Of a DNA stretch of 64,000 nt, positions 32,289-33,917 are shown piece by piece. Origin of the DNA: Acutalibacteraceae bacterium (GTDB lineage Bacteria; Bacillota; Clostridia; Oscillospirales; Acutalibacteraceae). The position numbers and the translations under genes are program-made. Position 1 is the stretch's first letter. Every line of letters begins with the position of its first letter. The DNA lies in NCBI GenBank assembly GCA_045636705.1, contig JAZTYA010000033.1, positions 677 through 64,676 of the forward strand. Direction: 5' to 3'. The notes under the pieces were generated by a model. The model saw only the letters and a program-made list of their open reading frames with translations, did no database searches and was not told the DNA's origin.

Positions 32289-32357
32289 CCTATCTCCTTT
32301 CGGGGGATAGGCGGCTATCAAAGGGCATAAGAAAAAAGCCCTTATGCCTTTTGATTG
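32289..32357 (+). promoter_or_regulatory. Bipartite hairpin element, copy B
   Basis: CCTATCTCC-TTTCG-GGGGATAGG, then CGG, then ATCAAAGGGCATAAG-AAAAAAGCC-CTTATGCCTTTTGAT. Confidence 0.6.
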
Positions 32358-32393
32358 TCGAAAGGCATGATTAAAAAAAGGAGGTCATTAGAA

Positions 32394-33833
32394 ATGACAA
32401 AGAAAAAGTCAACCAAGCGTGCTCTGCTTGCAAGTGCACTTGCGCTTCTCTTGTGCGTATCTATGCTCGTTGGCAGCACATTTGCTTGGTTCTCAGACAG
32501 TGTTACCTCCGCAGGTAACATCATCAAGTCCGGTACGCTTGATGTAACGATGGAGTGGGCTGATGGTACAAAGGCCGTTCCTTCTGATGACAGTGCTGAT
32601 TGGAAAGATGCATCAGCAGGTGCAATCTTCAATTACGATCTTTGGGAGCCCGGTTATACCGAGGTTCGTCACATTAAGATCGCTAACGAGGGCACTCTTG
32701 CTCTTAAATATCAGTTAAGCGTTAGCGCTAATGGTGAAGTAACAGACCTTGCTGATGTAATTGATGTTTATTATGTTGACCCTGCAATTCAGGTTGATGA
32801 GCGCACCAACCTTACTGCAGATATGAAACTTGGAACTTTAACTCAAGTTTTGGGGGCTTTCAATACAACAGCTGCAGGCAAACTTGCAGCAGGAGAAAAG
32901 CACTCTGTTACTATTGCTCTAAAGATGCAAGAGTCTGCAGGAAATGAATACCAGAACAAGGCTATCGGAACTGATTTCTCTGTTAAGCTCTTTGCTACAC
33001 AAGACACAGTTGAGGTTGATAGCTTTGATGATCAGTATGATGCTGGTGCTTTAATGCCAACCTACGTAACTACTGAAGCAGAATTACAAGACGTTGCTCA
33101 AAAAGGCGGCTGGGCTATATTAGGTAATGATATAAGCGTTGGGCAAACAATCAATATGAATGGTGGCGTTATTGACGGTAACGGCAAAACTATGACTCTT
33201 ACAAATAAGTCTAGTGGTGCTGTGATGTTGAATTCTACTGGAGGCACTATTAAGAACCTGAATTTCGCTAACAGCAATACCAGCTGGATTGGTGCGCAGT
33301 ATGCTATTGGATCCATTCAGTTTGCTTCTACCACTTTGACCGAAGATTTACACATAGAGAATGTTACAATTTCCAACTTCGATAATGCTATCGACCTTGA
33401 TGCAAATGGCAATAGCGTGTATGTAAAGGAGAGCGAAATTGCCAATTTCATTCAGGTTGCGAATGCCGAGATGCTTGCTTTTGATGGTTGCCATTTGATG
33501 GCTGACAATGCTACAAAGACCAGCACTAATGCTCCGCAAGCAATCATATTCTTAATGGGCGATATGACCTTCACCAATTGTCACTTTGAAGAAAATGTAA
33601 ACTTCTACCTAGATAGTGCAAGGTTCTCAGGTACAGTTGCGTTTGAAAACAGCACCTATGGAAACAATGGCGTTGAAGACAGACCGATTGAAAGCTTTGG
33701 CTTTATCACATATTGGTTCCCGGCAACAGGAATTTATGGATATGCCGGAACTTTCGGCGATACCAAGCCTGCGCAAACCCATTTCAACTGGATTATCGAT
33801 GGTACACTTGTTTGGGATGCTACCGAAATCTAA
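32394..33833 (+). CDS. SipW-class secreted protein: TasA-like N-module plus beta-helix-like C-terminal domain (subunit 4)
   Basis: ATG at 32394 after AAAGGAGGT. Signal ...LCVSMLVGSTFA/WFSDSVTSAGNIIKSGTLDVTM, EPGYTEVRHIKIANEGTLALKY, LFATQ, junction SFDDQYDAGA. The ORF-track start at 32355 lies inside hairpin element B. Confidence 0.8.
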   Translation: MTKKKSTKRALLASALALLLCVSMLVGSTFAWFSDSVTSAGNIIKSGTLDVTMEWADGTKAVPSDDSADWKDASAGAIFNYDLWEPGYTEVRHIKIANEGTLALKYQLSVSANGEVTDLADVIDVYYVDPAIQVDERTNLTADMKLGTLTQVLGAFNTTAAGKLAAGEKHSVTIALKMQESAGNEYQNKAIGTDFSVKLFATQDTVEVDSFDDQYDAGALMPTYVTTEAELQDVAQKGGWAILGNDISVGQTINMNGGVIDGNGKTMTLTNKSSGAVMLNSTGGTIKNLNFANSNTSWIGAQYAIGSIQFASTTLTEDLHIENVTISNFDNAIDLDANGNSVYVKESEIANFIQVANAEMLAFDGCHLMADNATKTSTNAPQAIIFLMGDMTFTNCHFEENVNFYLDSARFSGTVAFENSTYGNNGVEDRPIESFGFITYWFPATGIYGYAGTFGDTKPAQTHFNWIIDGTLVWDATEI

Positions 33834-33849
33834 ATTTTAAAAATGCCTG

Positions 33850-33917
33850 CCTATCTCCATTCGGAGTTAGGCGGCAATCAAAGGGCATAAGAAAAAAGCC
33901 CTTATGCCTTTTGATTG
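33850..33917 (+). promoter_or_regulatory. Bipartite hairpin element, copy C
   Basis: CCTATCTCC-ATTC-GGAGTTAGG, then CGG, then CAATCAAAGGGCATAAG-AAAAAAGCC-CTTATGCCTTTTGATTG. About 50 nt are nearly identical to copy B. Confidence 0.6.

Follow-up and report, generated by a model that had tools for sequence, protein, structure and literature searches.

Long hairpins between cistrons are known to set differential stability along polycistronic mRNAs, as do the RNase III signals of the phage T7 early mRNA and the decay-barrier hairpins of the Rhodobacter puf operon and of Escherichia coli malE-malF, the latter being repetitive extragenic palindromic (REP) sequences. Further structured elements have been described in several copies per locus or genome. 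The ANTAR/EutV targets of the Enterococcus eut locus overlap a terminator and consist of two small hairpins, each with a conserved hexaloop, integron attC sites are imperfect palindromes, one behind each cassette gene and all in the same orientation, and REP/BIME, pneumococcal BOX, Neisseria Correia and ERIC repeats occur in tens to hundreds of copies per genome, in unrelated contexts. In Clostridium perfringens, the operon of the signal peptidase gene sipW yields a bicistronic sipW-bsaA mRNA and a read-through mRNA, and a terminator is predicted after bsaA (PMC7395162). Here, we describe a repeated two-hairpin element in a SipW/TasA-type gene cluster of an Acutalibacteraceae bacterium (Bacillota; Clostridia; Oscillospirales). 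The cluster is part of a DNA stretch of 64,000 nucleotides (nt), hereafter called the window (GenBank assembly GCA_045636705.1, contig JAZTYA010000033.1, positions 677 to 64,676 of the forward strand). Comparative sequence analyses lead us to propose, with a probability of roughly 0.6, that the mRNAs of SipW/TasA-type operons carry the element as a structured RNA module acting in cis, which would mark the boundaries of the cistrons for large payload subunits.

We aligned 116 copies of the element, representing 115 distinct sequences, and compared their pairing with slid registers and 500 shuffles. In this alignment 97.7% of the cells are paired, versus 42-52% in the slid controls, and none of the 500 shuffles reached the observed values. 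All 28 base pairs show compensatory changes, with substitutions on both sides. G·U pairs are some ten times as frequent as mismatches; they occupy ~325 cells, versus at most 72 for non-pairs. As they would turn into A·C mismatches on the opposite strand, the functional fold is that of the sense strand, and the alignment indicates that the folding molecule is the sense-strand transcript, most simply the mRNA.

Hairpin 1 comprises 9 base pairs (bp) whose shape is kept while their sequence is free, with a loop of 0-18 nt of any sequence. One base separates it from hairpin 2, an uninterrupted helix of 19 pairs, or about two turns, with a median folding energy of -26 kcal/mol. Conservation is 80-97% in the linker C and in the 11 bp at the base of hairpin 2 (GGCAAUCAAAG/CUUUUGAUUGCC), where one position, at the junction of stem and U-tract, is G·U in 78% of copies. 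Covariation is free in the upper stem, which carries a loop of 2-144 nt; no conserved loop bases were found for either hairpin. The apex of hairpin 2 accepts structured insertions of up to 144 nt, with the base unchanged throughout. The inserts of 100-144 nt (L087 727-910, L082 223-432, L102 297-496 and L073 6052-6218) are long imperfect palindromes with arms rich in GTAAG/AGTAA, and they may represent a nested small palindromic insertion element. The 6 nt ahead of hairpin 1 tend towards (A)AGUCC. An anti-Shine-Dalgarno reading of hairpin 1 (CUCCUUU/GGGAG) was dropped, since its sequence varies freely in relatives. A promoter inside or after the element was also rejected, as no conserved -35/-10 motifs were found downstream of it; promoters, where present, lie upstream.

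The window harbours three copies of the element, all on the forward strand, from which we built a covariance model (R1), later refined (R2). Copy B (32287-32359; 96.4 bits with R1) lies between the stop codon of the gene for the TasA-like subunit 3 (32260-32262) and the ATG of the subunit 4 gene at 32394. Its hairpin 1 pairs 32289-32297 with 32303-32311, the linker C is at 32312, and hairpin 2 pairs 32313-32331 with 32341-32359 around the loop AAAAAAGCC. Copy C (33848-33919; 93.8 bits with R1) is located between the subunit 4 stop codon (33831-33833) and the GTG of subunit 5 at 33949, with hairpin 1 at 33850-33858/33863-33871 (one U·U mismatch), linker C at 33872 and hairpin 2 at 33873-33891/33901-33919. 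Copy A (26641-26711; 83.7 bits with R1 and 74.4 bits with R2) is found 100 nt past the gene of a small protein called sm75 (26313-26540) and ~215 nt ahead of the subunit 1 gene; it comprises hairpin 1 at 26643-26651/26657-26665, linker C at 26666 and hairpin 2 at 26667-26686/26692-26711 (one A·C mismatch). Copy A is more diverged than the other two, and both its hairpins show compensatory changes. A pyrimidine-rich motif, TTTTGTCTTGTCTTCAC, was noticed by eye upstream of copy A on the same strand (26603-26619), and, again by eye, some copies in other genomes show the word TTGTCTTGTCTTC 5-30 nt ahead of their hairpin 1.

Copies B and C had been reported in an initial annotation of the window as near-identical bipartite hairpins filling two consecutive intergenic gaps, and our analyses bear out both their sequences and their coordinates. 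They are 95% identical over 55 nt and far more alike than their flanking genes. A 41-nt probe allowing up to 3 mismatches matched these two copies only, with 0 matches expected from 100 shuffles. When folded, as the annotation had recommended, all three copies form stable RNAs of two adjacent hairpins, with energies of -34 to -42 kcal/mol and z-scores of -6.3 to -8.4 relative to shuffles. The proposed two-hairpin layout therefore stands, but the length of 15-17 bp given for hairpin 2 has to be extended to 19 pairs when the GG(C/U) of what was described as a 'CGG' linker is counted in. Each copy had been said to begin fewer than 30 nt after a stop codon and to end shortly before a ribosome-binding site (RBS); we found the stop codons 15-27 nt upstream and RBS-like sequences 14-20 nt downstream. 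The open reading frame (ORF) starts at 32355 and 33904, rightly regarded as spurious, are the first in-frame start codons and fall inside the element, and the true starts are likely the ATG at 32394 and the GTG at 33949.

We next consider the distribution of the element. In its own assembly (1.48 Mb, 95.8% complete), blastn-short and R1 detected three copies only, all at one locus. R1 identified copies in 10 genomes out of 61 relatives, each time in groups of 2-5 on one contig. With R2, we collected copies from 50 of 401 genomes and 26 of 179 genera of the order, at 1-8 copies per genome, and from 11 of 399 genomes of the class. An exact-pattern scan of one genome per species yielded at least 119 stretches, in Acutalibacteraceae, Oscillospiraceae, Ruminococcaceae, Faecousia and Lachnospiraceae (Faecalimonas, Tyzzerella), including one cultured carrier, Cuneatibacter caecimuris DSM 29486, in which a 564-aa TasA-like gene precedes the element (NZ_SGXF01000004). 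Altogether, more than 120 further copies were found in ~60 genomes of mostly uncultured Oscillospirales, in addition to the Lachnospiraceae copies. These scans of the genome and its relatives, which the initial annotation had advised, tie the motif to SipW/TasA-type loci. Viral contigs gave 0 pattern matches, on which basis a phage or mobile origin was rejected. A pattern match in a Hyphomonadaceae metagenome-assembled genome (L219) fell below the model threshold of E ≤ 1e-6 and was put down to chance or contamination. In distant relatives, a two-hairpin element whose hairpin 2 sequence is diverged or wholly different occupies the equivalent place ahead of the subunit-5 gene (L266 11616-11684 in G053, L265 11845-11909 in G039), and the two-hairpin architecture may be wider than the sequence family found by R2.

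The genes flanking all matches were classed by homology to the proteins of the window, with TasA-like genes defined as large from 350 amino acid residues (aa) upwards. For 126 non-overlapping copies in ~60 genomes, the gene ending just upstream codes for a TasA-like protein in 88 cases, for sm75 in 13 and for a second SipW in 5. Most of the remaining upstream genes are artefacts of crude ORF picking, and copy C of the window is among these cases. The copies are always in the orientation of the genes and typically lie 10-40 nt past a stop codon, whereas the gap to the next start codon varies more, between 16 and 320 nt. Within these loci, a copy follows 68% of the large TasA-like genes (83/122) compared with 4% of the small ones (5/138). 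The number of 'large gene + element' units differs between related clusters, from 0 to 5. Two core clusters of the same genus that lack large subunits, L262 (G019:C9) and L263 (G022:C70), keep SipW, subunits 2 and 5, the LPXTG protein and the two conserved downstream genes (p217 and p219); they contain no copy of the element, even with filters switched off. The gap between their subunit 2 and 5 genes is filled by different, GC-rich hairpins. As to positions in the transcription units, copies are found in 5' untranslated regions (UTRs), between cistrons and after last genes. One genome (G111) harbours three scattered paralogous units outside any SipW cluster (L121 3960-4160, L122 and L123), in the order consensus promoter, element, ORF of ~30 codons with an RBS, second hairpin and lone TasA-like gene; they resemble duplicated regulatory-plus-gene modules.

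A third hairpin, which like the (A)AGUCC tendency is absent from the initial annotation, may form at the 3' side of the element. The last 5 nt of hairpin 2 (UUGCC) can pair with a downstream GGCAA. The intervening loop often resembles a GNRA tetraloop, with GAAA and GUAA most frequent: the base that follows hairpin 2 is G in 84% of copies, and A predominates at the next three positions. Perfect 5-bp pairing was found in 48 of 116 copies (~40%), versus 15.5 in shuffles, and 60% of cells are paired in the fixed register versus 39-49% when it is slid. Hairpin 3 covaries with the 3' arm, as illustrated by the combinations TCGCC/GGCGA, TTACC/GGTAA, TTGTC/GACAA and TTGCT/AGCAA. On its own it reaches about -6 kcal/mol, and the minimum free energy structure of the whole RNA keeps the full hairpin 2 in 35 of 39 copies, so that hairpin 3 is latent. 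As it shares the last 5 nt of hairpin 2, it can form only after the base of the latter opens. In copy B it is limited to 4 bp (UGUC-GAAA-GGCA, 32356-32367, forward strand) that re-use the terminal 4 nt of hairpin 2 on its 3' arm.

The initial annotation had likened the inner stem of hairpin 2 and the U-tract that follows it to an intrinsic terminator, and it had proposed a switch in which the upstream A-tract alternatively sequesters the U-tract, extending the helix. The long hairpin with a sequestered U-tract is well founded, as covariation is strong and includes the A-tract/U-tract pairs. The switch is not borne out. No conserved alternative pairing of the 5' arm was seen, and pairing with the A-tract is no competing state because the U-tract is still inside the polymerase during termination. 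The sole competing helix found is the latent hairpin 3, which differs from the proposed switch. The likeness to a terminator holds in part: 103 of 116 copies are U-rich after the inner stem, with at least 5 U in 8 nt, but the inner stems are weak, and the U-tract is not conserved as such. Substitutions in the A-tract/U-tract pairs are compensatory, and through them some copies have lost their U-tract, including one, GGAGGCCCAUG/CGUGGGCCUCC, that is fully paired with a single U. What this pattern of substitutions preserves is the helix and not the U-richness.

Among alternative explanations, the most serious is that the element is a leaky intrinsic terminator or attenuator only, in which the inner stem of hairpin 2 with UUUUGAUU would halt part of the polymerases after large-subunit genes. 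The complementary A-tract would aid release, hairpin 1 would protect the 3' end, and subunits would fall stepwise along the operon. The order of A-tract, stem and U-tract in the typical copy is indeed that of a weak, A-tract-backed intrinsic terminator, the conserved G·U pair keeps a U at the start of the U-tract, the copies closely follow stop codons, and there is the precedent of the predicted leaky terminator after bsaA in C. perfringens (PMC7395162). However, 13 copies have 4 U or fewer in the 8 nt, and the inner stem has a median energy of only -7.6 kcal/mol (range -1.4 to -13), which is weak, albeit feasible with help from NusA/NusG. Moreover, a good promoter lies 20-30 nt ahead of the element in 9-11 copies. 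In one genome with lone TasA-like genes, these promoters are perfect or near-perfect (TTGACA-17-TATAAT for two copies, TTGATA-17-TATAAT for one) and end 26-30 nt before the element, which places the latter in the 5' UTR. At two operon ends, where the last gene precedes a convergent gene (L104 and L134), a canonical GC-rich terminator is found 110-250 nt past the element. Nor would termination account for hairpin 3, situated past the point where transcription would stop, or for the invariant sequence of the lower stem, and it accords poorly with loop insertions of up to 144 nt. A terminator function is thus possible, weakened by these comparative results, and we regard termination alone as a tentative second choice. 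A less probable proposal is that the element serves as a docking site for a dedicated trans-acting protein or RNA that recognizes the G·U wobble and the invariant bases of the GGCGGCAAUCAAAG/CUUUUGAUUGCC helix. The outcome might be processive antitermination, control of translation or the delivery of large-subunit mRNAs to the SipW secretion site. The lower stem keeps its sequence while the rest covaries, and the use of the element in 5', internal and 3' positions is in keeping with such a role. The co-occurrence with sm75, a transmembrane (TM) protein with a basic tail, has also been counted in its favour: among the 61 relatives, 8 have both, 2 the element only, 4 sm75 only and 47 neither. 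Nevertheless, no RNA-binding protein is recognizable in the cluster, the loops are devoid of conserved bases, and sm75 and the element each occur without the other. The sm75 domain is sometimes fused ahead of the signal peptide of TasA-like proteins, which points to a role in secretion. We therefore consider sm75 a weak lead as an RNA-binding partner, its co-occurrence with the element being real but imperfect.

At the DNA level, the element could delimit cassettes, as a stretch of homology for recombination or as an attC-like single-strand site by which payload genes are shuffled, duplicated or exchanged, in concert with the conserved 5' core of signal peptide and TasA. Such a function would suit the presence of one copy for every large gene, the 0-5 units of related clusters, an outer inverted repeat that is conserved around a variable centre as in attC, the likeness of copies B and C compared with their flanking genes, and the lone gene-plus-element units scattered in one genome. 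Yet many of the G·U pairs make sense on the sense strand only, the orientation is fixed relative to transcription, and homologous recombination would have no use for covariation in hairpins 1 and 3. Neither an integron integrase nor another site-specific recombinase was found between 23.7 and 40.2 kb of the window, where the neighbours are TetR, SipW and rplU-rpmA-obg genes. With viral contigs devoid of matches and a gene order that is otherwise syntenic, we hold a function as a recombination site to be improbable. The last possibility, a generic dispersed repeat of the REP or miniature inverted-repeat transposable element (MITE) type present here by chance, was the outcome that the initial annotation had named as contradicting it. 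The element is palindromic, repeated and intergenic, and some copies carry nested palindromic inserts. With its copies restricted to a single locus in its own genome, as judged from blastn-short and the covariance scan, and almost all found in the same cluster type elsewhere, this explanation is refuted.

We thus favour a boundary module in the mRNA, for which a mechanism can be sketched. The long perfect helix of hairpin 2 would be the recognition and cleavage site of a double-strand-specific or structure-guided ribonuclease, similar to the RNase III sites between the early genes of phage T7. Once cut, the upstream large-subunit mRNA would end in hairpin 1, a cap shielding it from 3' exonucleases, and the downstream mRNA would have its newly made 5' end capped by hairpin 3 and so be guarded from RNase J-type decay. 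Stability would thereby become a property of the individual large-subunit cistron, uncoupling the amounts of the subunits within one operon, while the weak inner stem and the UUUUGAUU tract might add some leaky termination. Capping of boundaries fits the 5' UTR, intercistronic and post-last-gene positions of the element, and a role in subunit stoichiometry, already put forward in the initial annotation, is plausible. Measured against all explanations together, processing and stabilization by such a module come somewhat short of an even chance and a mainly leaky-terminator function is a little less probable, with overlap between the two.

Several observations weigh against this reading in addition to the terminator-like features and precedent discussed above. 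Hairpin 3 is absent from more than half of the copies, copy C included. RNase III is not known to depend on a fixed sequence, and the invariance of the lower stem may point instead to a dedicated binding protein. In addition, three class-level variant copies are found in exopolysaccharide (EPS) loci and not in TasA clusters (L277 6767-6809, L278 5682-5724 and L279 5852-5894). In these variants, hairpin 1 abuts UGCAAUCAAAG...CUUUGAUUGCA without a CGG linker, and they separate genes for surface proteins of 895-2047 aa with ordinary signal peptides from an immediately following Wzz-like gene; a LytTR regulator and rmlA/rmlB are encoded in the same loci. A more speculative extension of the boundary module, which we put forward with some reserve, is an 'mRNA punctuation cassette' for operons of TasA-like fibres. 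A dedicated or general double-strand RNase would cut hairpin 2, with hairpins 1 and 3 as 3' and 5' caps, respectively, turning the operon into individually stabilized monocistronic mRNAs, and the element would also provide a recombination-proof boundary for exchangeable payload-subunit genes.

The SipW/TasA-type cluster spans 25.4-36.6 kb of the window. It begins with the gene of a second, degenerate SipW (25446-26174), followed by that of sm75 (26313-26540, forward strand), a 75-aa small TM protein of a conserved family. The tail of this family reads ELKYLNxEIxRTxGxERRYWxRxRRRLWLSLIPFVKY. In L111 (4047-5072), L114 (5579-6571) and L136 (2921-4018), the sm75 domain is N-terminal to the SipW-type signal peptide of a TasA-like protein, and this arrangement suggests a role in secretion or assembly. 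Next come the genes for the large TasA-like subunit 1 (26925-28589), the SipW-type signal peptidase (28594-29217, forward strand; TIGR02228 at 4.8e-29) and the small subunit 2 (29301-29993). A 60-aa ORF with four Cys residues (26756-26938) lies between copy A and subunit 1. It matches no Pfam or NCBIfam entry, and no counterpart was seen between element and subunit elsewhere, so that it is probably lineage-specific or not a gene. Another intercistronic hairpin, TTGTCGGC...GCCGACAA with an A-rich loop, is located between the genes of subunits 2 and 3 (30030-30070), and its sequence is unrelated to the element.

The gene ahead of copy B codes for the large TasA-like subunit 3 (30088-32262, forward strand; 724 aa), which has a SipW-type signal peptide, is beta-helix-like in its C-terminal part and matches TIGR04088, with weak matches to PF12389 and PF13229. 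The gene of the large TasA-like subunit 4 (32394-33833, forward strand; 479 aa; PF12389 at 6e-9 and TIGR04088) is flanked by copy B before and copy C after. Copy C precedes the gene of the small BsaA/TasA-like subunit 5 (33949-34521, forward strand; 190 aa), which matches TIGR04090 below the cut-off and has homologues in relatives with E-values down to 1e-100. Downstream of subunit 5 are genes for an LPQTG protein and two more conserved proteins. The flanks of the cluster are ordinary, with helix-turn-helix (HTH) and TetR regulators upstream and rplU-prp-rpmA-obg-Mini-III downstream. The rplU-prp-rpmA-obg genes are preceded by a perfect extended promoter, TG-TTGACA-17-TATAAT (36646-36674), and a gene with a Mini-III-type RNase III domain (39008-39388) sits after obg.

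The initial annotation had advised a comparison with known RNA families. Rfam 15 at gathering threshold reported only 4 tRNAs in the whole window and no match to the element, and in E-value mode the region 26500-34100 gave only chance-level matches to microRNAs (miRNAs) and small RNAs (sRNAs), with E-values above 1, so that the element belongs to no known Rfam family. There was no text match in the first 200 of the 408 supplementary files of a human-microbiome RNA-motif catalogue (PMC8040213), and the element may be listed unnamed in large motif catalogues. In the literature searched on SipW/TasA operons, we found no such motif, only the remark on the C. perfringens terminator.

We have thus collected a well-supported structured RNA family absent from Rfam, with more than 120 examples and covariation at every base pair, tied to one type of gene cluster. 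The host clusters code for SipW-dependent TasA-like fibres of abundant, mostly uncultured gut Clostridia. The element is a concrete starting point for understanding how, in these bacteria, the levels of many paralogous payload-bearing subunits are set from one operon. It is also an aid to annotation, since it marks the boundaries of variable 'payload' genes and explains two spurious ORF starts in the window, and it is a candidate compact insulator or processing part for Gram-positive synthetic operons. As a cultured carrier exists, Cuneatibacter caecimuris DSM 29486, the hypothesis is directly testable.

Comparison with the known systems situates the element among operon-internal RNAs. REP/BIME, BOX, Correia and ERIC repeats are, like it, transcribed palindromic repeats able to alter mRNA stability, but the element, at 1-8 copies per genome, is nearly confined to SipW/TasA-type clusters. 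It shares with attC sites conserved outer arms around a centre variable in sequence and length, at one per cassette-like gene, and differs from them in lacking an associated integrase, in its G·U pattern of a sense-strand RNA, in its syntenic cluster and in its extra hairpin 1. As with ANTAR/EutV targets, several copies of one two-hairpin RNA motif occur within a single large gene cluster, although the loops of the element are not conserved and its cluster contains no gene for an ANTAR protein or other antiterminator.

The T7 RNase III signals and intercistronic decay barriers are also long hairpins between cistrons, processing leaves the upstream message with a hairpin at its 3' end, and ~19 bp stacked on 9 bp would suit a double-strand-specific RNase. 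The T7 sites have an internal loop and form no conserved sequence family across hosts, in contrast to the element, for which cleavage is only proposed; REPs are genome-wide, whereas the element is locus-specific. The terminator of the C. perfringens sipW-bsaABCRSD operon (PMC7395162), compared here by its description, similarly combines a stem-loop, a U-rich tract and an upstream A-tract just after the gene of a TasA/BsaA-type subunit in a SipW operon, and in both cases the upstream product is expected to be favoured. Unlike that terminator and other A-tract terminators, the element has a lower stem that is invariant across orders, an obligatory hairpin 1 and an optional hairpin 3. It differs from them also by its weak inner stem, the loss of U residues by compensation, the location of some copies in 5' UTRs and the canonical terminators that follow it at operon ends. 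The element is thus an RNA family that is new, although its general kind, the operon-internal hairpin element, is familiar; its unusual traits are a lower stem invariant across at least two orders, a latent hairpin 3 and a strict tie to genes for large fibre subunits.

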